Positions 11,051 to 60,725 of a stretch of 64,000 bases of DNA are shown one piece after another (the stretch's first letter is position 1; each line of letters begins with the position of its first letter). The notes under the pieces are model-generated. The model was not told where the DNA came from, did no database searches, and was given only the letters and a program-made list of their open reading frames with translations. Source of the DNA: Escherichia phage BF17; the sequence record MW822008.1; one strand, given 5' to 3'. Made by a program: the position numbers and the translations under genes.

Positions 11051-11596
11051 ATGAGTATACTTAATGAAATGTTAGACTATAATGATGAAGAGCTAAATGA
11101 AGCTCGTCCATATAGTCGTTCACAAAGTGCAGTAGATAGTGCAAAAGGAAAAGTAAAAGGCTTTTTCGGTAGTGGTCAAGTAGAACAAGGTGCACAAGAA
11201 GTTGGTGCAGAAGCAAACCGTCTTTGGGCTGAATTTAAACGCTATGTTGGTCGCAAATACGGTAAAGCACAGCCATCAGTACCATATGCTGATGTTGCAC
11301 AATTCTTCAAAGGAAATAACCTTGATATAAAACACCTGGGAAATAACAGTCGTCGTACTTTTACTCCTAAAGATGTTGGTTCTGCTCTATTGGCAGCAGC
11401 ACGTGACTTGATGAATGATTATCGTGATGATGATAAAGGTGAAGAACAACAACGTCCTGCACCACAAGCTCAACCTGACAATGCTCCACAACCAGCACCA
11501 CAGGAACAGCCAAAAGCACAAGGTTCTAGTATCCCTGATGCTCTACAAAAATTAAGTCCAGAGCAGCGTGAACAACTTTTGCGTATGCTTTCTTAA
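11051..11596 (+). CDS. hypothetical protein with P/Q/A-rich low-complexity tail
   Basis: 181-aa ORF; AAGGA RBS; PQAQPDNAPQPAPQEQP segment. Confidence 0.45.
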   Translation: MSILNEMLDYNDEELNEARPYSRSQSAVDSAKGKVKGFFGSGQVEQGAQEVGAEANRLWAEFKRYVGRKYGKAQPSVPYADVAQFFKGNNLDIKHLGNNSRRTFTPKDVGSALLAAARDLMNDYRDDDKGEEQQRPAPQAQPDNAPQPAPQEQPKAQGSSIPDALQKLSPEQREQLLRMLS

Positions 11597-11609
11597 GGAG
11601 AATCAACAC

Positions 11610-13121
11610 ATGGATAATTTTTTCAGTACTGAAACTACCACAGTACCTAATGGATATGTATATACTTCTCACACTGGTGGCAAATATGTATTTCTAGAAG
11701 GTTTCTGGTTTAACGACAATAATATGTTAATGGTAGACCCTAAAAAATACCCATCCATGTACGCAAGTGCTCGACAACAGATTGTTGAGCACAATCTATC
11801 TTCTAGTGAATATAAAATTGGTAAAAAATATATTCTTGAAGGTAAAGAGTGTACATTTCTTGGTGAAAATCGTTTCAATTCTAAAGATGGAATTCTACTA
11901 ACTGAAAGTGAAATTATCACTGAACTAATGGCAGATGACCACCGTGTATATAATGTTTCAAAAGAAACTCTACAAAAAGAATGGAACTCCCTAAAATTCT
12001 ATATCCTTCCACCATATGCTGATGATATTTCTATTCCAGCAGGTATGGAAGTTAGTGGATTTAAATTCATCCCTAAAAATCACCGTTTTGTTGATGCAAA
12101 ATCTGGACGTCCAGTTGACCCAGCAATGACACGTAAACTTTCCGATGAAGGTATGCGTATTGCTCGCCAATTAGCACCAAAAAACAAACTAATTCCAATT
12201 AAATCTACATTAGTACAAGGTAATACTCGTTCAGAATGGAATGGTAAAGAATTTTGTGATAATGATGGTAATGTTGTAATTCCAGAACAAAATGCACATG
12301 TAATCTTTAATGCATATCAGCAATTTGTTAAGGCTAACCCTGGTGATTTTCCTTCACTAACTGGTGATCATGAATCAGGTGAACAACGTTTTGGTTCAGG
12401 TGAAAAGCCAGAACAACCTAAACAACCAGTAAAACAGCCAGTATTCGCAACAAAAGAATCCATTAATGAAGCAGATGAAGAGATTGAAGAAACTGAATCT
12501 GTTGTGGTTCCACATGGTTACCGCATTACTTCAAATAAAGGTAAAACATACATTAAACAAAAAAATGCATGGTTTGATGTAGAAACTAAAAAACAACTAA
12601 ATTCTAGTGCTGCAAAAAGTGTTGAACGTGCTGCTCAACGTGATATAATTCGCCATAATAGTTCTGGTGCAATGAAAATCGGAACTAAAGTAAAATCTAA
12701 GAAAGGCACAGAGTATTCTTATATCGGTGGTAACCGCTTTATCAGTGCAGAAGGTAAATTGATTCCAAAATCAACTGCTGATGACATTCTTGCTCGTTAT
12801 GATGCAGAACGTGCTGATAAGAAAGAAGAAGAACCTGAAGAGAAAGTAGATGCTGAAGTATCAAGTACTGATGTAGTTGAGCCAAAAGCTGAACCTACTA
12901 AAGAACCAGAACCTGTTGCAGAGCCAGAACCTGAAGTTCCTGCTGCTGGGGATGAAGTTCAATCATTAGCTTCACGAATTAAAGAATCACCTTACGCTAA
13001 GAAAATTACAGTACTCTTAACGCGTGGTGATGAGGTTTCTCTAATTGCTGCTGACATTTTACTATCTGGTAAAAAGGATGAAACAGTGCAAATTTTAAAA
13101 TCATTAAATAAGAATGATTGA
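11610..13121 (+). CDS. hypothetical protein with internal tandem duplication
   Basis: ATG at 11610 with AAGGAG RBS (track starts 11568); two copies of a ~110-aa module (VPNGYVYTSHTGGKY.. / VPHGYRITSNKGKTY..; YKIGKKY..GENRF / MKIGTKV..GGNRF). Confidence 0.5.
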   Translation: MDNFFSTETTTVPNGYVYTSHTGGKYVFLEGFWFNDNNMLMVDPKKYPSMYASARQQIVEHNLSSSEYKIGKKYILEGKECTFLGENRFNSKDGILLTESEIITELMADDHRVYNVSKETLQKEWNSLKFYILPPYADDISIPAGMEVSGFKFIPKNHRFVDAKSGRPVDPAMTRKLSDEGMRIARQLAPKNKLIPIKSTLVQGNTRSEWNGKEFCDNDGNVVIPEQNAHVIFNAYQQFVKANPGDFPSLTGDHESGEQRFGSGEKPEQPKQPVKQPVFATKESINEADEEIEETESVVVPHGYRITSNKGKTYIKQKNAWFDVETKKQLNSSAAKSVERAAQRDIIRHNSSGAMKIGTKVKSKKGTEYSYIGGNRFISAEGKLIPKSTADDILARYDAERADKKEEEPEEKVDAEVSSTDVVEPKAEPTKEPEPVAEPEPEVPAAGDEVQSLASRIKESPYAKKITVLLTRGDEVSLIAADILLSGKKDETVQILKSLNKND

Positions 13122-13143
13122 TAACTAAAAGGATTTATTTAAA

Positions 13144-14133
13144 ATGGCTAAAAAAATTAATGAAGCACAAGTTAAAATCGATATCGCAGGTCTAGAATCT
13201 GAAGATCTAGAAACACTATCTCGTATGCTTGCATTAGCTGGTCAAGCAGAGCGTCAAGCTTCTCCTGTTGCTGCTCCAGTTCCTTCTATGGGGTCTATGA
13301 CCCCTTCTCTACCACCAATCGCTCCACTCGACATGGATTCCATTGGTGCTGGTGCTGAAGAAGAAGTTGGTGGTACAATGGATGGTGCGATTGATGCACC
13401 AGTTGAAGACCCATTGGAAGTAGCTGCTGACTCACTATCTGCTGAAGCTGGTGATTTTGGTGGTGATTCTGAAGAAGTAAGTATGGATGCAGAGTTCGAA
13501 GAGCCTGGTGTTGCAGATGAAGAAGAGTTTTCTTTAGATCTTTCCGGTCAACCTCAACTAGAATCAGTTGAAGAAGAGGAAGAAGAAGAAATCATCGAAG
13601 AAGAATTCGATTTCAGTCGTATGCTATCTCTAGCTGGGCTTCAAGACGAACCAGAAGATGAATATTCAGTAGAAGGTAACCCAGATACTGAAGTTAAAGT
13701 TGAAGAAAACACTTTCCTACCAGACCTAACCATCTCTGAAGATGAAGAACAAGGTGACAGTACTGATTTTGGACCTTACAACACTGAAGCTGATGCCGTT
13801 CGTGACGGTCAAGCTAAAACTAATGGTGTAGAAGGTGACCACTTTGTTGTTATTACCAAGGGTAACAAGTTCTACTGGAGACGTGTCGTTGATGAAGATG
13901 TTGACAATCGTCCTGAACCAGAGTACTATGACAATGACGGTAACGAGAACCGTGTTCACAAATTTGAACCTAAGTTTCCAGGTACTGCTCTAGGTGACAA
14001 CCCACTCAATGTTAATGAGAGTGATGAGTCCGTGGAAGGTAACGAAGAACTAGAAGATGAAAGCGATGAAGAAGTCGAAGACATTTTCGAAAGTCTCCAG
14101 AAGAAATATCAACAATTTCTAGGGGACAAATAA
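13144..14133 (+). CDS. highly acidic protein (D/E-rich)
   Basis: 329 aa with long E/D runs (EEEEEEEIIEEEFDF); AAAGGA RBS. Confidence 0.5.
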   Translation: MAKKINEAQVKIDIAGLESEDLETLSRMLALAGQAERQASPVAAPVPSMGSMTPSLPPIAPLDMDSIGAGAEEEVGGTMDGAIDAPVEDPLEVAADSLSAEAGDFGGDSEEVSMDAEFEEPGVADEEEFSLDLSGQPQLESVEEEEEEEIIEEEFDFSRMLSLAGLQDEPEDEYSVEGNPDTEVKVEENTFLPDLTISEDEEQGDSTDFGPYNTEADAVRDGQAKTNGVEGDHFVVITKGNKFYWRRVVDEDVDNRPEPEYYDNDGNENRVHKFEPKFPGTALGDNPLNVNESDESVEGNEELEDESDEEVEDIFESLQKKYQQFLGDK

Positions 14134-14134
14134 G

Positions 14135-14527
14135 ATGGGATATAATTATCGTGAATTGGTTGAAGCATTAGATGAAATCACTTCTAGTGAAGAATCTACT
14201 GAAGAAGAAAGTTTTGCAGTTGAGACTCCTTCTGATGCTGTTGCCACCGATTTACTTAAAGATATCACCGAATGCCTTATCCACATTGTGGATAAGGTTA
14301 AATCAGGTGAAGATCAAAAAGAAATCGTAGAAAAGCTTCAAAAAGCGTGTGACATTTTATCGGATGTTCGATATAATGATGAAAGTACTGAAGAAGTTGA
14401 TGAATCCACTGATTGCTGCTTCGGAACCAAAGATATGGGTCCGAAAATTGGTAAAGATGGTGTCCAAGACTATAAAGTTAAAGATGCTCCTTCATATGCA
14501 GCAAGACAGGGTTTCGTGGGGATGTAA
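14135..14527 (+). CDS. acidic hypothetical protein
   Basis: 130-aa ORF, E/D-rich, GGGGA RBS, tightly packed after previous gene. Confidence 0.45.
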   Translation: MGYNYRELVEALDEITSSEESTEEESFAVETPSDAVATDLLKDITECLIHIVDKVKSGEDQKEIVEKLQKACDILSDVRYNDESTEEVDESTDCCFGTKDMGPKIGKDGVQDYKVKDAPSYAARQGFVGM

Positions 14528-14530
14528 TTT

Positions 14531-14908
14531 ATGATTCCTGAACCACACAACAGTACTGAATTTCAAAACGATGTACTTTTAAAAGTTAGAGAAGTACATG
14601 GATCAGACGCTGAATTAACAGACCGTATGCTTCTGATGTCAATTTTTGAAAATTTCAGAACTGGCGGTGGTTTAAGACTTAGCAAGTTTGGATATACAAT
14701 TTGTAAAGAAAACATTCTTTACGAATTTACAAAAATCCCCTTGCAAAGAGAGTTCAAAAGTTCTATAATCTTTACATCGCTTGATAGGATATGTACTTCA
14801 CCCTACTATGTAGAAGGGCAGTACATATACCTCTCGGACGCAATGATAGTTACAGAGTTAACATTGTGTGGTGATGATTTTAGAATGTTATTTTCGATGC
14901 ACATGTAG
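14531..14908 (+). CDS. hypothetical protein
   Basis: 125-aa ORF with GGGGA RBS. Confidence 0.4.
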   Translation: MIPEPHNSTEFQNDVLLKVREVHGSDAELTDRMLLMSIFENFRTGGGLRLSKFGYTICKENILYEFTKIPLQREFKSSIIFTSLDRICTSPYYVEGQYIYLSDAMIVTELTLCGDDFRMLFSMHM

Positions 14909-14933
14909 CTTCGAAAATAAAGAAAAAAAGATG

Positions 14934-14961
14934 TTGACAACGCCGAATGATGTGTTATAAT
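14934..14961 (+). promoter_or_regulatory. sigma70-type promoter P1 (TTGACA-N16-TGnTATAAT)
   Basis: TTGACA 14934-14939, TATAAT 14956-14961 with TG extended -10. Confidence 0.7.
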
Positions 14962-15025
14962 GACCACCACGAAGCAAGTTTTCAAAATCACAAGATGTGA
15001 GATTGAAAAAGAAATAAAAAAGTTG

Positions 15026-15053
15026 TTGACAAGCCTGAACGATGTGATATAAT
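15026..15053 (+). promoter_or_regulatory. sigma70-type promoter P2, tandem duplicate of P1
   Basis: TTGACA 15026-15031, TATAAT 15048-15053; ~40-bp block GTTGACAA...GATGTG.TATAATGACCAC repeated 92 bp apart. Confidence 0.7.
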
Positions 15054-15115
15054 GACCACATCAAGACGGCAAAGAGAAATGCCTTTTTAAATACATGGAT
15101 GATTCATGAAGTAAC

Positions 15116-15158
15116 AAAGGAACTGATAAGTTAAAAATTCTTTTAACACAGTTCCTTT
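15116..15158 (+). promoter_or_regulatory. long stem-loop in 5' leader of the AAA+ gene
   Basis: AAAGGAACTG ... CAGTTCCTTT 10-bp inverted repeat with nested GTTAAAA/TTTTAAC stem. Confidence 0.45.
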
Positions 15159-15184
15159 ACTTTTGCCCACGGATTGGCTATAAT
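15156..15184 (+). promoter_or_regulatory. possible third promoter (TTTACT-N17-TATAAT)
   Basis: TATAAT 15179-15184 with weak -35 at 15156-15161. Confidence 0.35.
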
Positions 15185-15224
15185 AGAAACCTAAACGATT
15201 TTATCCAACAAAAGGAAAATATAC

Positions 15225-16553
15225 ATGTCTACTCAAAACAACGATATCCTGAACGTAAAACTGACTCCTAAGAAAGCTAAAGAAGCAATGGCACTGGCTG
15301 ACATGATTCAAGATAGCCTGATGATTTGGGGTAGCCCTGGTATCGGTAAATCTGCTATCGCACGTCAATACGCTGATGAGAACTACCCACTGCGTAAAGA
15401 TAACGTGGCAAAAATTGAGTTCATGAAACAACAAATCGAAGCTGATACTGAAAATGCTGATCAACTTCGCCGTGAACTGGCAGCGTTTGAAGCCAAACTA
15501 ATCGACCAAGACACTAACTTTATCGATTTCCGTTTGTCTCAGATTGAACCAAGTGACCTTCGCGGTATTCCAGTTCCAGAGAAAGTGTTCCTTGATATGG
15601 ATGGTAAGCAACTGATTGAATCTGAACTGGCTAGTGCACAAGATTACATCGCTGAAACAGCAGTTGTGTGGGCAGCACCTAAAGTACTGAAACTGTCTCC
15701 AGATTGGAAAGGTGTTATTCTGTTTGACGAAATCAACTCTGCAATGCCGATTGTACAGGCAGCGTCTTATCAGCTAATCCTCGACCGTTGTGTTGGTGAG
15801 ATGAAGCTACCTAAGACTGCACTGATTCTCGCAGCAGGTAACCGTGAAACTGATGGCGGTGTAACGTTCTCTCTAGCTACACCACTGCGTGACCGTATGA
15901 CCCACATCGAAATGATTCCTTATCATCAAGATTGGATTAACGATTATGCGATTGGTAAGCGTTTGAACCCAGCAACTGTAGCGTTCATCAACAACACTGG
16001 TGCTAAACACTTCAACACCCTTAGCCCACAAGATCCTTCTCACTGTGGTGGTACTTCTCCACGTTCATGGGAAGCAGTAGCACGCTACGAAGATCTGAAG
16101 AAAGTTAAGAACATTGATAAAGAAGTGTTCCGTGCGATGATTGCAGGTCGTGTTGGTGAAGGCGTAGCAACTGAATACATCGAGTATGTTGATAACGTAG
16201 CTAAACTACCAGATACCATGTCCATCCTACAGGGTGAGATTAAAGAGATTGATGCTTCGCTTGATATTTCCGCGAACTACTTCATCACTCTGAATCTGGT
16301 TTACAAAATTATCGACCTCTACAATGAGAAGCAAGAACAACGTCTACCAGTGGAAGATTGGGGTAAGCTGTGCAACAACTTCATCACCTTCCTAGACCAT
16401 AACTTCTCTGCAACTCAAGCAGAACTGGCAGTACTGGCGATTCGTACCATCACGCTTCATAAAGTAGCGATTACGATTAAAGATGTACCAGCGTTTAAAG
16501 ACTTCGTTATGAAGTACTCTGACCTAGTACGTAAAGCACGCTCTCTTGGTTAA
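15225..16553 (+). CDS. MoxR-type AAA+ ATPase (AAA_5 / CbbQ-NorQ-CobS-like)
   Basis: Walker A GSPGIGKS, Walker B VILFDEINSA, AAGN and TPLRDRM motifs; single AAA module; AAGGA RBS. Confidence 0.75.
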   Translation: MSTQNNDILNVKLTPKKAKEAMALADMIQDSLMIWGSPGIGKSAIARQYADENYPLRKDNVAKIEFMKQQIEADTENADQLRRELAAFEAKLIDQDTNFIDFRLSQIEPSDLRGIPVPEKVFLDMDGKQLIESELASAQDYIAETAVVWAAPKVLKLSPDWKGVILFDEINSAMPIVQAASYQLILDRCVGEMKLPKTALILAAGNRETDGGVTFSLATPLRDRMTHIEMIPYHQDWINDYAIGKRLNPATVAFINNTGAKHFNTLSPQDPSHCGGTSPRSWEAVARYEDLKKVKNIDKEVFRAMIAGRVGEGVATEYIEYVDNVAKLPDTMSILQGEIKEIDASLDISANYFITLNLVYKIIDLYNEKQEQRLPVEDWGKLCNNFITFLDHNFSATQAELAVLAIRTITLHKVAITIKDVPAFKDFVMKYSDLVRKARSLG

Positions 16554-16575
16554 TAATTAAAAAGAGTGTTGACAA

Positions 16576-16606
16576 GAAGGATACCACATGGTATCCTTCT
16601 TTTATC
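16576..16606 (+). terminator. intrinsic terminator after AAA+ gene
   Basis: Perfect palindrome GAAGGATACCA-CATG-TGGTATCCTTC + TTTT; preceded by TTGACA at 16569. Confidence 0.65.
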
Positions 16607-16628
16607 TTAACTAAACGAGGAAATACAA

Positions 16629-18038
16629 ATGTCAGATAAACGTTTCAGTGATGTTACTCCGGCTCTCCAGAAAGAATGTCAAGATCGTCTGATCTTAGCT
16701 CGCACATCTTTAATGCTAACATTCCCATTCTTTGGTGTACTGGCTTCTCGTCTGCGTCCAGTTGCAAACAATACATGGTGTCGTACTTTGGCAGTAGATG
16801 GTAAGCATTTATTCTACAACGTAGAATTCATCATGGGTATTCAGGACCAATCCAAAAAGACCGCATACGAAGAAGCAATTCGTGAGAAACATCCTGAAGT
16901 AACTGAAGAACAACTTAAAGAAATGACAGAAGGTTTGACTGATGAAAACCTGATTGCAGTTATCTGTCATGAGATTCTTCACTGTGCATATGACCACTTC
17001 TTGCGTCGTGGTATGCGTGACCCGCAGCGTTATAACCGTGCTGCTGACTATGCAATTAACCAGATTCTTGTTCGTGATAAAATTGGTAAAATCCAAAGCC
17101 AATGGCTGTACGATAAAAAGTACGATGGCATGACTGCTGAAGAGATTTATAACATTCTCGAAGAAGAAGATAAGCAGGATCAAGACGGAGAAGGTGAAGG
17201 TAACCCACAGGCTGGTAGTGGTGAGGGCGAAGGTAAATCACGTGGTACTTTTGGCGATATCAAAGATGGTAAAGGCAAAGGTACAACAATTGACCAGCAT
17301 GACGTTCCACAAGAAGGTCAAGAGGGTGGTTCAAGTGAGAAACAAAAACGTGATTATATGGATGATTTCAAAACAGCAATGATGAATGCTGCTCGTGCAG
17401 GTGGTACTCCTGCTGAAATCGCACGTATGATTAACAACTTCAAAGAACCAAAGATCGACTGGCGTTCTAAACTTCACCGCACGCTACGTAGCTGGTTGAA
17501 GTCTGACGCAACTTATCAAAGTCCTAATCGTCGTTCATGGGGTGCTGGTTTTGGTAGTACTGGTTCATTCTACGGGAATCCAATCTTCCCTGGCATGAAA
17601 CCTGATGATGATATTGATATTGCAATTGCACTAGATGCATCCGGTTCTATCTCTGAAGATATGCTCCGTGATTTCATCAGTGAAGTACTGGGTATCACTA
17701 AGCAGTTTAAACAATTTAAAATCCGTATCATGACGTTCGATACTGAAGTTTATACTGTAAAAGATTACAAAACTGGTGAAGAGAGTAAGATTCTTGAATA
17801 TCCAGTGAAAGGTGGTGGTGGTACTGACTTTGAAGCAGTATGGGTTCATATGAAGCATGACAACTATAAGCCAAAACAGCTTATTATGTTTACTGATGGT
17901 GAGCCGTGGCAGTCATGGGGCGATCCTGATTACTGTAAGACACTGTTTGTTATCCACAGTAATCCTAACAAACAAGCACCATTTGGTGAAACTGTACACT
18001 ACGAATATGAAGCTGACAAAAAGCGTCAACGTAGCTAA
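16629..18038 (+). CDS. vWA-domain protein with N-terminal HExxH metallopeptidase-like domain (DUF2201-like), partner of the AAA+ ATPase
   Basis: HEILH motif; MIDAS residues DASGS ... GGGGTDFE ... FTDGEP; GAGGA RBS. Confidence 0.75.
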   Translation: MSDKRFSDVTPALQKECQDRLILARTSLMLTFPFFGVLASRLRPVANNTWCRTLAVDGKHLFYNVEFIMGIQDQSKKTAYEEAIREKHPEVTEEQLKEMTEGLTDENLIAVICHEILHCAYDHFLRRGMRDPQRYNRAADYAINQILVRDKIGKIQSQWLYDKKYDGMTAEEIYNILEEEDKQDQDGEGEGNPQAGSGEGEGKSRGTFGDIKDGKGKGTTIDQHDVPQEGQEGGSSEKQKRDYMDDFKTAMMNAARAGGTPAEIARMINNFKEPKIDWRSKLHRTLRSWLKSDATYQSPNRRSWGAGFGSTGSFYGNPIFPGMKPDDDIDIAIALDASGSISEDMLRDFISEVLGITKQFKQFKIRIMTFDTEVYTVKDYKTGEESKILEYPVKGGGGTDFEAVWVHMKHDNYKPKQLIMFTDGEPWQSWGDPDYCKTLFVIHSNPNKQAPFGETVHYEYEADKKRQRS

Positions 18039-18050
18039 GTACTAAATAAT

Positions 18051-18081
18051 GAGAACGGAAAATTCCGTTCTCTACTTTTTT
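18051..18081 (+). terminator. intrinsic terminator after vWA gene
   Basis: GAGAACGGAA-AA-TTCCGTTCTC hairpin + T6. Confidence 0.75.
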
Positions 18082-18147
18082 CAGCGGGACAGCTTGGAAA
18101 AAGGTGATATAATTATATTTGTAACAACATACATGGAGAGTATTAAA

Positions 18148-44325: not shown

Positions 44326-44353
44326 TTGACAAACGCAAAGAATGTGATATAAT
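44326..44353 (+). promoter_or_regulatory. sigma70-type promoter (TTGACA-N16-TGnTATAAT) for ClpA-like gene
   Basis: TTGACA 44326-44331, TGTGATATAAT 44343-44353; same architecture as P1/P2. Confidence 0.7.
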
Positions 44354-44391: not shown

Positions 44392-46680
44392 ATGAATCTT
44401 ACCCAATTGTTCAAAAAAAGCGACGAACTGGCAACTTCTCTGGGTCATACCTTCTTGACTATTGACCATCTAAGTGCTACAGTACTGACAATCGATAGCA
44501 TCAAAGCAGTGTTTGAGGATATGAACATCGATGCAGAGAAACTACACGGTCGTTTGATTGCATATCTGAAAAATACAGCATTCCCACATGCACCTAAAAG
44601 TGCTGATGGTGATGAAGCGAACCGCACATCACTTCTTGTGAACCGTGTAGTTCAGGAACTTTCTAAGAAATCAGTAATTGAGCAACTTAAACGTGATGAT
44701 TTCTCAATTGATGCTTATTTTGTACTGTTTGAGTGTTTGTCCTTCCCAAATACTGCACTAGAAGCAGCATTGCGTGAAGAGGGTATCACTTGTACTGAAG
44801 CAGCACGAACTCTTCAGAAGCACGTAGAAGCAATCGACAACGGAATTAACCTTCAAAGCATTAGTGATGAACCAACTGGGGAGAAAAAAGTGGCACAACA
44901 GCAACCATCGTCCAAACAAAAAGGTTTAGAAGATTACACCACTAACCTAACCGCACTTGCAAAAGAAGGTAAACTTGACCCAATGATTGGTCGCCAGAAA
45001 GAGCTTTCTGCACTGATTGAAACTCTGGCCCGTAAGACTAAGAAAAATGCTATCCTGACTGGTGAAGCTGGTGTTGGTAAAACGCAAATTATTGATGGTC
45101 TAGCACAGGCAATCGCTGATGGTGAAGTACCAGAGCATCTTAAAGATGTTGAAATTCTGTCTCTGAACGTAGGTGCACTGACTGCTGGTACTAAGTACCG
45201 TGGTGAGTTCGAAGAACGTATCGATAACCTACTAAAAGAACTGAAGAAACGTGAAAACACTATTGTGTTCATCGATGAAATCCATATTATGGTTGGTGCT
45301 GGTTCAGCAAGCAACGGTTCTATGGATATGAGCAACATGCTCAAACCTGCACTATCTCGTGGTGAGATTCGTGTAATCGGTGCAACAACTTACGATGAAT
45401 ATCGTAAAAACATCGAAAAAGATAGTGCACTAACTCGTCGTTTCATGAAAATTGATGTAGTTGAGCCAACAATTGATGAAACCCGTGCGATTGTGAATGG
45501 TTTGAAATCTACTTATGAAACTTTCCATAACGTAGAGTTCAGTACTGAAGCAATGGATGCAGTTATTACACTAAGTGATAAGTTCCTGAAGAACAAACAC
45601 TTCCCTGACAAAGCAATCGACCTAATGGATGCGGCAGCAGCGAAAGTACGTTCTCGTGAAACTGATGATAACATCATCACTGTTGCACTGATTCAAGAAG
45701 TTGTTGCAGGTATCGCAAACCTAGATATTAACGTGGTTGCTTGCACTGAAAGTGAACGTATGCGTAATCTACCAGATGCACTCCGTTCTCGTGTATACGG
45801 TCAAGAAGAAGCAGTACAGAAACTGGTTGATAACGTGATGGTAGCTCGTGCTGGTCTGCGTGATAAATCAAGTGTTCAAGGTGCATTCATGTTTGTTGGG
45901 CCATCTGGTACTGGTAAAACTGAAATTACCAAAGCACTGGCTGATGCAACTGGTTCTGAACTGATTCGTTTCGATATGTCCGAGTTTTCACAGGAACATA
46001 CTGTTGCTAAACTGATTGGTTCACCTCCAGGCTATGTTGGTCACGATTCTGGTAACGGTCTGCTACTCGACAAGATTGAGCAGTTCCCGAATGCAGTACT
46101 GTTGCTTGATGAAATCGAAAAAGCTGATCGTAAAGTACTACTAACCTTCCTACAGGTTCTGGACGAAGGACGTTTGACTGGTTCACAAGGTAAAACTGTT
46201 TACTTCAATAACGTAACTGTTATTATGACAACTAACCTTGGTGCAGCAGATTCAACCAAGCGTAGTATTGGGATGAGCGGTAGTGACACAGCACAAGATA
46301 AAGCGATTAAAGCATTCTTGCCACCTGAATTCATCAACCGTATCGATAGTATTGTGACATTCAAAGACCTAAGCAGCGAAGCGATTGACAGCATCATTGA
46401 TAAGTTCATGGGAAGTTTGAATGAACAAATCAAAGACCGCAAAGTTAAAGTTTCACTGACCAAAGCGGCACGTGAGTGGTTGGCAACAAATGGTGTTAAA
46501 GTTGGGATGGGTGCACGTCCAATGAAACGCACTATTGAGCAAAACATCCGTGTCCCACTAGCTAAAGAGATGTTGTGTGGTTCTCTGGTTAATGGTGGTA
46601 ACGTAACGTTTGATGTGATTGATGGTAAATTGGCTATCAAACCTAAACGAACTAAAGCAGTAGAAAAAGTTATTGCGTAA
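44392..46680 (+). CDS. ClpA-like two-ring AAA+ unfoldase (Clp/Hsp100 family)
   Basis: D1 Walker A GEAGVGKT and B IVFIDEIH; D2 Walker A GPSGTGKT and B LLLDEIE; sensor GARPMKR; no ClpB middle domain; SIGMSG loop where ClpA has IGL; ATG 44392 with TAGGAG RBS (track starts at GTG 44368). Confidence 0.8.
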   Translation: MNLTQLFKKSDELATSLGHTFLTIDHLSATVLTIDSIKAVFEDMNIDAEKLHGRLIAYLKNTAFPHAPKSADGDEANRTSLLVNRVVQELSKKSVIEQLKRDDFSIDAYFVLFECLSFPNTALEAALREEGITCTEAARTLQKHVEAIDNGINLQSISDEPTGEKKVAQQQPSSKQKGLEDYTTNLTALAKEGKLDPMIGRQKELSALIETLARKTKKNAILTGEAGVGKTQIIDGLAQAIADGEVPEHLKDVEILSLNVGALTAGTKYRGEFEERIDNLLKELKKRENTIVFIDEIHIMVGAGSASNGSMDMSNMLKPALSRGEIRVIGATTYDEYRKNIEKDSALTRRFMKIDVVEPTIDETRAIVNGLKSTYETFHNVEFSTEAMDAVITLSDKFLKNKHFPDKAIDLMDAAAAKVRSRETDDNIITVALIQEVVAGIANLDINVVACTESERMRNLPDALRSRVYGQEEAVQKLVDNVMVARAGLRDKSSVQGAFMFVGPSGTGKTEITKALADATGSELIRFDMSEFSQEHTVAKLIGSPPGYVGHDSGNGLLLDKIEQFPNAVLLLDEIEKADRKVLLTFLQVLDEGRLTGSQGKTVYFNNVTVIMTTNLGAADSTKRSIGMSGSDTAQDKAIKAFLPPEFINRIDSIVTFKDLSSEAIDSIIDKFMGSLNEQIKDRKVKVSLTKAAREWLATNGVKVGMGARPMKRTIEQNIRVPLAKEMLCGSLVNGGNVTFDVIDGKLAIKPKRTKAVEKVIA

Positions 46681-46712
46681 AAAAGAAAAGGAGAGCAAAT
46701 GCTCTCCTTTTT
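46681..46712. terminator. bidirectional intrinsic terminator
   Basis: GGAGAGC-AAAT-GCTCTCC flanked by A-run and T5. Confidence 0.75.
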
Positions 46713-46713
46713 G

Positions 46714-49700
46714 TTATTTAACTTCTAATAGATTTTTAATGTCATTACCACTTATTTGCAAACTATCGGAGTAAACAGATAGTTCGATTGGATAACTGTT
46801 AACACTATAACGTTTTAGTAAATTAACTTTACCTAAGTTCAAGCCATTAAATGAATATGTCACATTCTCTTTAAAGTCGTGTTCTGCACTATACATTACC
46901 CCACGGAGTAAGTTATTTGCAAAACGTACTTCAACTTTTTCAAAACCAAGAGAAATAATATCATTCATACTTGCACCAGCACCAGATAGAACATTATTAG
47001 TAACACTATATGGACTAACTGAATCTGGTTGTGAAACATAAGTAGCATTTTCTTCACTGATAGCAGTAATGTTAGTTACTGTTCCACCAACTACACCAAT
47101 ATATGTATCACTAACTAGTGGATATGCATATTCCCATACCCCGTCAGCATTCAGTACTGGTTGAATAATACCAACATCATACTCGAACACGTTAATTTCC
47201 ACACTATCAGTCATTTTGGTTCTCACTAACTCACTAAGAACACCTGCACCAGTAATTGGTAAGTTATATCCGTTATCAATGGTAACACCATCAACTTCAA
47301 ATATCTCGTTAGACACTACCCAAACATCAACGTCATCTGGTGTAATTCCATCATTATAAGAACCACCGTATAGTGTTGTGTCGTAGAATACTTCATAGTT
47401 CATTGCGTCGATAGCATAATTTCTATTTGTTTCATACAACTTAACACCATCAACCAAGAATTCTGGATCAGCAAAGGTTCTAATACGAACGATGTTCAAT
47501 GCTAGAGGTATTGCTGGTTCATTCTGTTGTTGTTTAGTGATGTTATCATAACGAAGCACAACTCCAGTACTATCTAGTAGTTCTACAGTTCCGTTCGCAG
47601 TGTTTCTTACTGTGTACAAGGTTGGTGTGGTGTCAGTTTTGATTTTTGATACACTCAAGATGGTTTCCCATGCATTGTTTTGGTATCTCACATAATCTTC
47701 ACCATCAGTTGTGAATATCATAACCTTATCACCATCAGATAGGGTATTGTCAATTACTTCAGCTTCTGTATCACTAACAATTGATTTAATTTTATAGAAG
47801 TATTTTTCATCATACTTACTGTATGATTTACTAATATCATTTTCAATCTTAGCGTAAGAAGGAATACTAACAATTGCTTCTGTTGTTTTATAAGGGTTGA
47901 TAATAACCATACCTTCAGTTTTATATCTACTATTGTCTCTCAATTGAACTAGTGAAACACTATTGAATCCATAACCATCAACTGTGAAGCGAATCTGACC
48001 AATCTTTCTTCCTGATGGGTTAATATCAGAAATGTCGATTATGTACGGATCTACTTCGTCACCTTCAACTTCCCATTTTAACTCGGAAGTTTGTGATTCA
48101 AGTGCTAGGTTATCAAATGCATTCATATCATCGTAGTACTTAGCATCGGTGATGCTATCTAGGATGTGCTGATAATCACTGTACATTGGGTTATTTCTAT
48201 CAAGAGGTAAGTCATCAAGATTTATTTCTGCCAATTGAACTAGTTGACCGTCAGTTATGAATTTGTCTTCCATGAAATCATCAATGCTTTGGTCATCTGG
48301 GATACTCTCGTATACACCATTAACATTAACATAAACATATTTTCGTGGCATCATAGTAAATGCATGAATATCAATAGGCATTCTACTTAGTATTTCTTCA
48401 GCCTTTTCATAATGGTCGGTAGCATCTTTGTCATACAAACCACGCATACCGGACAATACATGAATTGCGTCATTGTAGAATCGTTGATTTCCATTTTCAT
48501 CTACATGGCGATATGAATAAACACCATATTCAACTTCAAGTATAATTCTAACTTCATCATCAGTTGCAGTAGTATTGTTTTCTTTAATTAAAGAAACATA
48601 CTTATTATACAACTCACTACTAACTTCAAAGTAACCAAAGTTATAATCAGTACTGGATGCATAACCAAACGGTAGTCTGGTACTTGGATTATCATCATAG
48701 GTTAACCCACTAAATCCACATCCAACCTCATCATGAATTACTTCATCATCTGCACCTGTGTACAATTTCAAACGGTTAGAGAGTGTGTTATACTGAACAT
48801 AATGATTTACGTCATTAAACATTTCATTTTGTGTTGATTCTTTATATACACGATTCAACGTTTCTGTGAATTCTGCGGTTGCTACCAAATCATCTGCATG
48901 GTCTGCATACCATTGGTTAACACCGTAAGCAATCCCTAGAGTTACGTTCAATTCTGGGTAATACAATTGCATCTGATAAGCAACCAATAGGTCGAAATCT
49001 TCATCACTGTATTCTGGGAATGTATATTTGTAACGTTGTAATTCAAAATTACTAACAACATCTTGTGCATTAGATTGATATTTCTTATTCACTTCTTCCA
49101 ATACATCAACACTTGCCAAATTATCATTTGGTTTACATTGAGTGTTGTCGTAGTGCATGATAACATCAATTTCTTGGAAACGGCGATTAGGTGTTACGAA
49201 ATCACTTGGCAATTCACCAACTTGCTCCCAACGTTGAGTTACCTCATTGAATTGAGCATATTCATAATCCCAAATGTCTTTTTCCGTTTTAACCCAAGTC
49301 CCATCTGCAAATATATAGCCATTAGGATCTAAATCATTACACAAACCTTTAATTAAATCATCATCTGAAGTTTTCTGTTCAATCTGGGAACGAATCTTAG
49401 TTCTATATGGTTTAACTTCTTCAAAGTACTCAACGATTTGATTAATCAAGTTGTCGTTGGAATAGTTCTGTACTAATGATTGTTCTAAACCTACAATATA
49501 AATGTAAGATGTTTTGAATACCCAATCAACAACGCTTTGTTCTACGTGAACATACTTAACCATATCAAACACAATTTCACTCTGATGTAAGTCGAATGAG
49601 TTCTTCAATAAAGCTAGTGCTTTACGAACGTTAATCTCACGATTACTCAACGAACCATTAGCATCACGAACTGTATAGTCAGCGTATAACATATCATTCA

Positions 49701-60227: not shown

Positions 60228-60292
60228 AATTTATTCCTTTAAATCAGTAAAGTACTAGTTCAGTACTGGGAATTATATATAGAAATATTTAT

Positions 60293-60323
60293 CCAAAAAG
60301 AAAAGCACCCCGAAGAGTGCTTT
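60293..60323 (-). terminator. hairpin terminator between gp25-like and gp6-like genes
   Basis: AAAGCAC-CCCGAAGA-GTGCTTT stem with T-runs on both strands. Confidence 0.5.
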
Positions 60324-60329
60324 TATAAT

Positions 60330-60725
60330 TTACAAAGATGATACAGAATAGGTAGCCATTCTGTTGTTACTTCTTGCATCAAAAACTATAGTTAATTCTT
60401 CAAGAGTATTGAGAACAACATATTCAAGTACTATATCCATCTGATAACCGTACTCAATTCTTGATATTTGAAGTTTCTTTAAGCTTAAACGTGGGTCCAA
60501 GCTAATAATTCTACGGGCATCTGCTTCCAAAAGGTTGATTGTATTATAACCATCCAATTCAAATAGCAAATCCCACGCAATGAACCCATAATCAGCATCA
60601 AATGCACGTTCACCTTTTTTTGTATTGAAATGATTCATTAAATCCTGACGAACCAATTCACTGTCATACAATGTTTCAGTTCTTCCAACTACTGGAGTTG
60701 AAAAACCTTTAAAAACAATTGCCAT
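60330..60725 (-). CDS. baseplate wedge protein gp25-like
   Basis: TKKGERAFDADYGFIAWDLLFE matches T4 gp25 TRKGSRPFDPEFGCDLSDQLFE (recalled); 131 aa vs 132. Confidence 0.8.
   Translation of the reverse strand: MAIVFKGFSTPVVGRTETLYDSELVRQDLMNHFNTKKGERAFDADYGFIAWDLLFELDGYNTINLLEADARRIISLDPRLSLKKLQISRIEYGYQMDIVLEYVVLNTLEELTIVFDARSNNRMATYSVSSL

Follow-up and report, generated by a model that had tools for sequence, protein, structure and literature searches.

Why should a phage place two consensus promoters directly in front of a terminator-like hairpin, with the genes that they could serve lying only beyond it? In this work we have analysed a window of 64,000 nucleotides (nt) from Escherichia phage BF17 (sequence record MW822008.1; all coordinates are counted from the start of the window). 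The subject is a nested inverted repeat at 15116–15158 on the + strand, between a virion-protein operon and the start codon of a gene for a MoxR-like AAA+ ATPase, which is followed by a gene for a vWA-like partner. A first-pass annotation had described this region as a structured 5' leader between tandem promoters and the AAA+ start codon, and had suggested that it might act as an attenuator, as an RNA-processing site or as the terminator of a small RNA. The structured leader is present as described. We propose that the repeat, together with the T-rich tail behind it, is a terminator which ends the transcripts of the virion-protein operon and also attenuates transcription from the two promoters, P1 and P2, before it reaches the ATPase–vWA gene pair, and we give this reading a probability of about 0.7.

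The nested repeat was found exactly where the first-pass annotation had placed it. Its outer arms, AAAGGAACTG (15116–15125) and CAGTTCCTTT (15149–15158), are 10 nt long and 100% complementary, and they enclose an inner stem formed by GTTAAAA (15130–15136) and TTTTAAC (15141–15147). Folded as RNA together with its flanks, the element has an energy of −17.8 kcal/mol, as compared with −9.0 ± 2.5 kcal/mol for shuffled sequences (z = −3.45), and none of the 200 shuffles was as stable; the 43 nt alone give −14.6 kcal/mol. The pair probability of the stem is 0.99–1.00 in the context of the P1 transcript as well as in that of the P2 transcript. A stable structure is thus predicted, and we regard both the hairpin and its stability as established. 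The T-rich tail, TTTACTTTTG (15156–15165, + strand), would form the U-tract of the RNA, with 3' ends predicted at about 15163–15166; 7 of the 12 nt of the tail UUUACUUUUG are T, with an AC interruption. The hairpin can be extended to about 24 base pairs (bp) with internal loops, comprising a lower stem GAAGUAA/UUACUUU, an outer stem of 8–10 bp and the 7-bp inner stem, and by our reading the lower extension is not conserved in phages A4 or RaK2. An exact-pattern search found the element in a single copy, and a search of Rfam at a permissive E-value over 14500–15400 returned chance-level matches only, far under the gathering scores.

Is this hairpin a peculiarity of one genome or a lasting feature of a larger group of phages? 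The 801 bases around it are 99.5–99.9% identical to seven records of jumbo coliphages, including EC.P1, Ecwhy_1, fEgEco12, WPEC3/5 and vB_Ec-M-J, and about 85% identical to 121Q, PBECO4, G17 and phAPEC6 of the genus Asteriusvirus; by its sequence identity, which reaches 99.9% with EC.P1, Ecwhy_1 and fEgEco12, the window phage is an Asteriusvirus-type jumbo coliphage. A more sensitive search added RaK2/K64-1 (Alcyoneusvirus) and Munch-like Salmonella phages as relatives. For the comparison we took the stretch in front of the orthologous ATPase gene from annotated phage records, IMG/VR contigs and metagenome contigs. The sample holds 23 distinct lineages from five named phage genera and from unclassified and metagenomic lineages, namely Asteriusvirus, RaK2, Munch-like phages, EJP2, Eneladusvirus, GAP32 and metagenomic relatives, with ATPase identities to the window from 93% down to 54%. 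A hairpin with a T-rich tail lies upstream of the ATPase gene in 23 of 23. The PA5oct-like phage PAC2, the ATPase of which is 28% identical, has no such element upstream of the ATPase gene.

The sequence of the stem differs among the lineages while its pairing is kept. It reads GGAACTG/CAGTTCC in the window and Asteriusvirus, GGACTG/CAGTCC in RaK2, GGCACTG/CAGTGCC in Munch and Eneladusvirus, GACACTG/CAGTGTC in lineages L015 and L017 of our sample, AGCACTGA/TCAGTGCT in GAP32-like phages, GCACTGG/CCAGTGC in L026 and GCACAGC/GCTGTGC in L035; in L039 and L040 the stem is of another sequence, GGCTCC/GGAGCC, and the tail is the same. Of the 11 pairs in the terminator stem, 7 show compensatory changes on both sides, and one-sided changes were absent except for one G-U cell at the outermost pair, which rarely forms. 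The proportion of paired cells in the alignment was 84.6%, falling to 20–49% when the 3' partner was slid by 1–3 columns, and the covariation score was 0.294 as compared with 0.098 ± 0.015 in shuffles, none of which (0/500) reached the observed value. These pair counts were made on an alignment in which the loops had been trimmed by hand to 4 nt to hold the register, because MAFFT, given the full-length sequences, put the 5' arms out of register in the lineages with long loops; RaK2, L015 and L017 are still partly out of register in the trimmed alignment, so the counts are conservative. It is therefore established that the stem has been kept up by compensatory evolution. Eneladusvirus and GAP32-type phages have a tetraloop, and the loop of Munch-like phages, RaK2, EJP2 and Asteriusvirus has 12–22 nt with a small stem of its own; over the whole sample the loops run from the tetraloop to 23 nt. 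Since the loop varies so freely, the inner stem GTTAAAA/TTTTAAC, which the first-pass annotation had singled out as a second stem and which is present, is to be seen as a lineage-specific expansion of the loop and not as a second conserved element. The energy of the hairpin is −12 to −18 kcal/mol in all lineages, whatever the architecture of the loop. The tail contains 7–9 T among 12 nt in all 21 tabulated lineages, and CTTTT is near-invariant in the alignment.

Hairpin and tail are, to judge from their sequence, a Rho-independent (intrinsic) terminator, because both occur in all lineages, the stem shows compensatory changes and the stability is steady. Annotation and modelling of the relatives agree with this. 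In the GenBank record of G17 (MK327931) the homologous site is marked as a 'putative transcriptional terminator, -9.20, determined by ARNOLD', so automated annotation had already noticed it in one relative. The relatives with short loops are canonical: a consensus scan calls the GAP32 and pEa_SNUABM_50 homologues terminator-like, with 10 bp, a loop of 4 and the tails CTTTTTTCAA and CTCTTTTGGC, and a TG-extended promoter is found about 30 nt upstream of each. A covariance model built from the GAP32- and Eneladusvirus-type copies recovers the window copy at 26 bits. The same model matches ordinary end-of-gene terminators at 352–414, 46662–46725 and 60274–60346 with similar scores, and these share the A-tract, the stem and the TTTCTTTT design of the element. 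We considered whether the element belongs to a paralogous family in the window and rejected this idea, since the matches of the covariance model amount to a generic likeness among terminators. The terminator function that had been suggested from the sequence has thus gained support from the T-tract, the covarying stem in 23 lineages, the short-loop relatives and the ARNold call in G17.

What would this terminator end? The four open reading frames (ORFs) upstream of it (11568–14908) include three PHROG 'virion structural protein' families. A scan for hairpins with T-tracts on the + strand found no other terminator-like site from 11568 to 15118, so the element would be the 3' end of the virion-protein operon. 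P1 and P2 sit between the upstream stop codon (14908) and the terminator. The translation start of the ATPase gene, with its Shine-Dalgarno sequence AAGGA at 15212–15216 and the ATG at 15225–15227 (15212–15227 in all, + strand), lies beyond the terminator, and this position relative to promoters and genes is established, as is the T-tract.

P1 (14934–14961, + strand) consists of TTGACA, a 16-nt spacer and a TG-extended TATAAT, with a predicted start at about 14968 and an A-rich UP-like tract upstream (14913–14933). P2 (15026–15053, + strand) is a tandem copy of it, again with the TG extension and with a start predicted at about 15060. Both match the consensus at 12 of 12 positions, so the tandem promoters named in the first-pass annotation are confirmed. 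They are parts of a 55-nt direct repeat with a spacing of 92 nt and A-rich sequence upstream, and sites of this class (12/12 with the TG extension) number three in 64 kb, where 0.11 would be expected. P1 is conserved across Asteriusvirus and RaK2. The third perfect TTGACA-16-TGnTATAAT promoter, at 44326–44353, precedes a ClpA/ClpB-like double AAA+ gene (44392–46680; AAA_2, AAA, ClpB_D2-small), which means that all three consensus promoters of the 64 kb precede genes for AAA+ ATPases; the promoter at 44326–44353 has no terminator in its leader. In phage SP27 (L005, 1520–1760) the promoter unit is present in a third tandem copy, with the junction of the duplication directly after the ACGGA motif of the leader.

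A promoter is found 14–110 nt upstream of the terminator in every lineage, and the order of promoter, leader and terminator is constant. The type of promoter differs: it is TTGACA with UP-like tracts in Asteriusvirus and RaK2, GGGACA...TGTGATATAAT in Munch-like phages and TGAAACG...TGGTATAAT in GAP32- and Eneladusvirus-type phages. The TGAAACG class is known from the CBB paper as a divergent RpoD-like promoter upstream of genes of DNA metabolism (PMC5259590). Another promoter-like site, P3 (TTTACT-17-TATAAT, 15156–15184, + strand; 10/12 match, start predicted at about 15191), overlaps the tail of the terminator in such a way that the TTTACT of the T-tract is the −35 of P3. Its TATAAT/TATCAT is kept in Asteriusvirus and RaK2 and not in the Munch-like, Eneladusvirus and GAP32 lineages. 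Three features of the locus go beyond the first-pass annotation: the element is the first terminator downstream of the virion operon, a promoter-like site lies over its T-tract, and a second hairpin with GGA in its loop follows.

The leader itself contains several smaller features. In the P1 transcript, TTTTCAAAATCACA and TGTGAGATTGAAAA (14979–15009, + strand) form a hairpin with 14-nt arms that are 86% complementary and a pair probability of 0.99; this repeat directly precedes the UP-like tract of P2, and by our reading 121Q and EJP2 have hairpins of other sequence at this place. The first-pass annotation had also pointed to a short hairpin of GGCA (15068–15071) and TGCC (15080–15083) followed by T5 (15084–15088; 15068–15088 in all, + strand). 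The hairpin exists and folds at about −5 kcal/mol, although a conserved role for it could not be upheld: the pairing is lost in 121Q, UE-S1, JNE01 and A4, which leaves it without evolutionary support, and it is lineage-specific and probably non-functional. The motif ACAUGGAUGA (15093–15102, + strand), of the form A-N-GGA, lies 17 nt upstream of the terminator stem. An ANGGA is present 9–21 nt upstream of the terminator hairpin in 19 of 21 tabulated sequences (that of GAP32 was read by eye); it is missing in L026 and in the displaced EJP2 copy, and among the metagenome loci added later GGA occurs in L035 and L039 and not in L040. This motif and a T[TC]AAGA just after the predicted start are kept in most lineages within a leader that is otherwise unalignable. 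Within Asteriusvirus, the 5' half of the leader diverges at roughly the genome-wide rate.

How could such an arrangement work? We infer from the sequence that RNA polymerase terminates at the hairpin. The terminator would end the transcripts of the virion-protein operon, and these mRNAs would then carry the P1–P2 region as their 3' untranslated region (UTR). It would also halt most RNA polymerases that set out from P1 and P2, which appear to be very strong sigma-70 promoters. Because these promoters are followed by a terminator, the expected products are leader RNAs of about 105 nt from P2 and about 197 nt from P1, unless the terminator is read through; the lengths assume that transcription begins about 7 nt beyond each −10 and that the RNA is released in the U-tract. 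The predicted terminated RNA of GAP32-type phages and pEa_SNUABM_50 has about 60 nt. The ATPase and vWA genes would be reached only by the fraction that reads through, to which the transcripts of the weaker P3 would add in Asteriusvirus and RaK2. The element may therefore be both an insulator and an attenuator, either fixed or conditional (factor-dependent), which sets the amount of ATPase–vWA mRNA.

Several observations weigh against this reading. The U-tract of the window copy is interrupted (UUUACUUUU), its stem is AT-rich and its loop is long, so the efficiency of termination is possibly modest. A simple terminator scan does not call the window copy, because the loop limit of the scan is 8 nt. 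P3 is conserved nowhere outside Asteriusvirus and RaK2. In EJP2 (L008, 1210–1530) the order is a promoter copy, a 14-nt leader, the terminator, another consensus promoter, a leader, hairpin 2 (CCAACGGATTTTGG) and the ATPase gene; here a promoter copy separates the terminator from the ATPase leader, so termination in the leader is not indispensable for this gene. RNA 3'-end or expression data for these phages were absent from the literature that we searched, which yielded nothing specific on transcriptomes or promoter and terminator maps of Asteriusvirus-, RaK2- or GAP32-type phages and no paper on a conserved arrangement of promoter, leader, terminator and hairpin. Lastly, a plain operon terminator normally precedes the next promoter, and this is the usual order elsewhere in the window, the reverse of that found at this locus; the conserved order of promoter, leader and terminator suggests more than insulation.

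Could the additional function be attenuation of a classical kind? The first-pass annotation was right to place a terminator between promoter and start codon, as an attenuator has it, while the other parts of such a device were not found in conserved form. There is no competing antiterminator fold, the probability of the terminator stem being about 1.0 in the ensembles of both leaders. We considered a leader peptide, for which ATGGATGATTCATGA would encode MDDS, and rejected it: the AUG is lost in 121Q, JNE01, A4, Munch and L016, frames and lengths differ elsewhere, and there is no conserved leader ORF. No match to a riboswitch-like or cis-regulatory Rfam family reaches its gathering score in 14500–15400. 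A protein that senses the GGA motifs of the leader is possible.

These motifs lead to the first of the alternatives, in which the leader is a platform for CsrA/RsmA or a similar phage protein, and a dimer bound to GGA sites would repress translation or alter termination, tying ATPase–vWA expression to the physiology of the host. Directly after the terminator tail lies hairpin 2 (15165–15178, + strand; GCCCA-CGGA-UUGGC), a short covarying stem with A(C/U)GGA in its loop. Across the lineages its stem reads GCTTA/TAAGC, CAAAT/ATTTG, CAGAT/ATCTG, CCAAA/TTTGG or GCTCAA/TTGAGT, two of four stem pairs have changed on both sides, the loop has 4–6 nt, and the GGA is unpaired in it in 20 of 21 folded sequences. 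The probability of its G-C pairs is 0.88 in the read-through RNA. The second ANGGA, upstream of the terminator in most lineages, is also in favour, and in the window the GGA of hairpin 2 (15171) and that of the Shine-Dalgarno sequence (15214) are 43 nt apart, a spacing that would lie within the bridging range of CsrA. The hosts named in the records are all Enterobacterales, and such hosts possess CsrA/RsmA. However, hairpin 2 is weak (−1 to −5 kcal/mol; the window version has 3 bp, a mismatch and 1 bp) and is absent in L039 and L040, and the Shine-Dalgarno sequences of Eneladusvirus- and GAP32-type phages are without GGA. A GGA would occur by chance in a leader of such size with a probability of 0.25–0.6 per lineage, and the lineages are related. 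Hairpins with GGA in the loop are not enriched in the window (9 as compared with 9.6 ± 3.3 expected), and for this reason we rejected a window-wide regulon of such hairpins. Moreover, should P3 be the working promoter, its mRNA would not contain hairpin 2, which precedes the start. In Salmonella, CLIP-seq (sequencing of RNA cross-linked to and precipitated with a protein) showed that CsrA binds AUGGA in apical loops and that ANGGA is its general recognition motif (Holmqvist et al. 2016, PMC5207318), and in the light of this a CsrA/RsmA-responsive leader would be a possible but unproven overlay on the terminator; as an explanation of the locus we consider it decidedly unlikely. We are just as doubtful about a wider proposal, that promoter, leader and terminator form a regulatory RNA unit of the sampled RaK2-like jumbo phages, in which the A(U/C)GGA motifs of the short terminated RNA, of the read-through leader or of both, one of them in the loop of hairpin 2, would recruit CsrA/RsmA or a phage RNA-binding protein and switch the ATPase–vWA pair according to the state of the host, or an abundant leader RNA from the two consensus promoters would titrate the host regulator.

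Is it possible instead that the locus is a stand-alone gene for a small RNA, made up of promoter, leader and terminator? The 5' single-stranded part with UAAGA and A-N-GGA would then act in trans through base-pairing, Hfq, CsrA or ProQ. The products would measure about 105 and 197 nt in the window phage and about 60 nt in phages of the GAP32 and Eneladusvirus types, and the ATPase would be expressed via P3 or by read-through as a by-product. That a promoter and a terminator of its own would delimit a short non-coding transcript in every lineage speaks for such a gene, as do the reversed order of promoter and terminator and the two motifs kept in an otherwise unalignable leader; a 3' hairpin with a U-tail is, in addition, a general Hfq-binding module (PMC5207318). 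Nevertheless, no Rfam family matches, and the 5' half of the leader diverges within Asteriusvirus about as fast as the genome as a whole. The promoter of GAP32- and Eneladusvirus-type phages is of the TGAAACG class that is known upstream of protein-coding genes (PMC5259590), and these phages have no other conserved promoter before the ATPase gene. EJP2 also argues against it: there the terminator follows another promoter after a leader without the motifs, whereas the motifs and hairpin 2 remain in the 5' UTR of the ATPase, which suggests that they belong to the mRNA leader and not to a terminated small RNA. We therefore regard a small-RNA gene as unlikely. The RNA-processing site of the first-pass annotation corresponds to yet another view, in which the hairpin is an RNase III site or a barrier to 3' exonucleases that separates or stabilises the mRNAs of the virion operon and the ATPase without terminating transcription. 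The extended hairpin of about 24 bp is in the size range of phage RNase III sites, which need about 20 bp or more of double-stranded RNA. Similar hairpins follow each gene of the ATPase–vWA unit, and such punctuation suggests that read-through is common and that the hairpins may bear on the stability of the transcripts. This reading is a poor fit, since the conserved core comes down to a 10-bp stem with a tetraloop in Eneladusvirus- and GAP32-type phages and is thus too short by the general length threshold just given. The lower extension that lengthens it is the part missing from A4 and RaK2, and the T-tract, which processing would not need, is invariant beside the stem. We consider processing at this site highly improbable.

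Three further ideas about the locus were examined and rejected. Pairing of the U-tract with the Shine-Dalgarno region gave duplex energies no better than those of shuffled tails or the tails of other terminators, and so amounts to generic complementarity of pyrimidines and purines. A transcription-primed origin of replication, suggested by tandem promoters in AT-rich DNA, finds no support in the cumulative GC skew, which has no inflection near 15 kb and turns at about 20.5 kb, where the orientation of the genes flips. A pause signal of the lambda-Q type was considered in the AACGAT after P3, which is not conserved in JNE01 or A4.

All genes between 11.5 and 20.5 kb lie on the + strand. The ATPase gene (15225–16553, + strand) encodes a MoxR-like, N4 gp24-like AAA+ protein of 442 amino acids (aa), which matches PHROG 1297 'ATPase' with E = 2.9e-105 and, weakly, Pfam AAA/AAA_3. 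The gene behind it (16629–18038, + strand; 469 aa) is N4 gp25-like and encodes a protein with a metallopeptidase-like DUF2201_N part (Pfam PF13203, 2e-36) and a DUF2201/VWA-like part (PF09967, 9.7e-22). The orthologous pair in RaK2 is annotated as N4 gp24-like and gp25-like. To our knowledge, no role in infection has been established for this ATPase and its vWA/metallopeptidase partner. Between the two genes, the hairpin and T-tract scan found a hairpin of −16.5 kcal/mol with a T-tract (16575–16609, + strand), and in phage Munch a terminator is annotated at the equivalent place. A GTGTTGACAAG box, the −35 motif of P1 and P2, runs into this hairpin and its tail TTTATCTTA (region 16563–16609), so that a promoter-like box and a terminator-like hairpin share DNA here. 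The unit is closed by a terminator at 18053–18085 (+ strand), found by the same scan and by ARNold in the annotation of G17, and the next promoter-like site after it is GGGACA-16-TATAAT with an extended −10. With a hairpin and T-tract after each gene, partial termination seems to be the rule in the ATPase–vWA unit.

The 125-aa ORF at the end of the virion operon (14531–14908) is labelled 'transcriptional regulator HdfR' in fEgEco12; it has no Pfam support and matches only a PHROG of unknown function. A 13-nt inverted repeat, TTATTTTCGATGC/GCTTCGAAAATAA (92% complementary, 14888–14920), spans its stop codon. The tract that follows this repeat is A-rich, not T-rich, and the repeat is visible in phage A4 too. 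Within the same ORF, at about 14797–14819, lies a palindrome, CCCT-ACTATGTAGA-AGGG, which arises from the Pro...Gly codons of a conserved PYY(V/I)xG motif and has the equivalents CCCCT...AGGGG and CTCCA...TGGAG in relatives; it may be a coincidence of codons or an RNA hairpin inside the coding sequence. Another ORF, of 30 aa at 14960–15052, is listed as a 'hypothetical protein' in WPEC5. We regard it as spurious, as its first codon falls within the −10 of P1 and the ATG is missing in 121Q.

What does the element mean for the biology of these phages? We see it as a well-supported punctuation mark, at once the 3' end of the virion operon and the entry to the ATPase–vWA unit, into which two consensus promoters fire. 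It is rather ordinary in kind, and its arrangement is unusually well conserved among giant enterobacterial phages. If termination proved to be conditional, the locus would reveal how these phages time the expression of the MoxR-like ATPase and its vWA/metallopeptidase partner, and if the leader RNA bound CsrA or Hfq, we should have here a case in which a post-transcriptional regulator of the host is used by a lytic jumbo phage. Should neither hold, annotation would still gain, not least by the removal of the spurious 30-aa ORF from some records. Jumbo phages of the RaK2, 121Q and GAP32 types are under development for therapy.

How does the element compare with known systems? With the intrinsic terminators of E. 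coli and T4-like phages it shares the order of A-tract, stem-loop and T-tract, energies of −12 to −18 kcal/mol and a position on the transcribed strand after an operon, and in style it resembles the genome's other terminators. It differs from them in lying downstream of the next promoters, and hence also in a 5' leader, and, in the window, in a loop that has grown into a second stem and a U-tract interrupted by AC. Like the attenuators of trp and pyrBI and those of riboswitches, it appears as an intrinsic terminator between a promoter and the first codon, but unlike these it is accompanied by no conserved antiterminator fold, no conserved leader peptide and no cis-regulatory Rfam match. A(C/U)GGA in the loop of hairpin 2, the second ANGGA upstream and the GGA of the Shine-Dalgarno sequence recall CsrA/RsmA sites; this is a resemblance only. 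The stem of hairpin 2 is very short, and the set of motifs is incomplete in several lineages. In the promoter-coupled terminators of bacteria (Fletcher et al., bioRxiv 10.64898/2026.08.19.745784), at most 35 bp separate the termination site from the downstream start; the modal spacing is about 10 bp, and the −10 follows the T-tract immediately. Here, termination is predicted about 26 bp before the start of P3, and the element is placed between tandem genes; both are in keeping with such terminators, although the spacing is larger than the modal value and P3 is confined to Asteriusvirus and RaK2. In formal terms, the pR'-tR' region of phage lambda comes closest. There, transcription from a constitutive late promoter stops at tR' and yields the short 6S RNA, except when RNA polymerase has been modified by the antiterminator Q. 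Neither a Q-like protein nor a Q-binding element was identified in our case, and a conserved pause signal close to the promoter was likewise not found. The layout is nevertheless alike: in both, a strong promoter is followed within about 100–200 nt by an intrinsic terminator, the genes lie beyond it, and a short leader RNA would be the default product.

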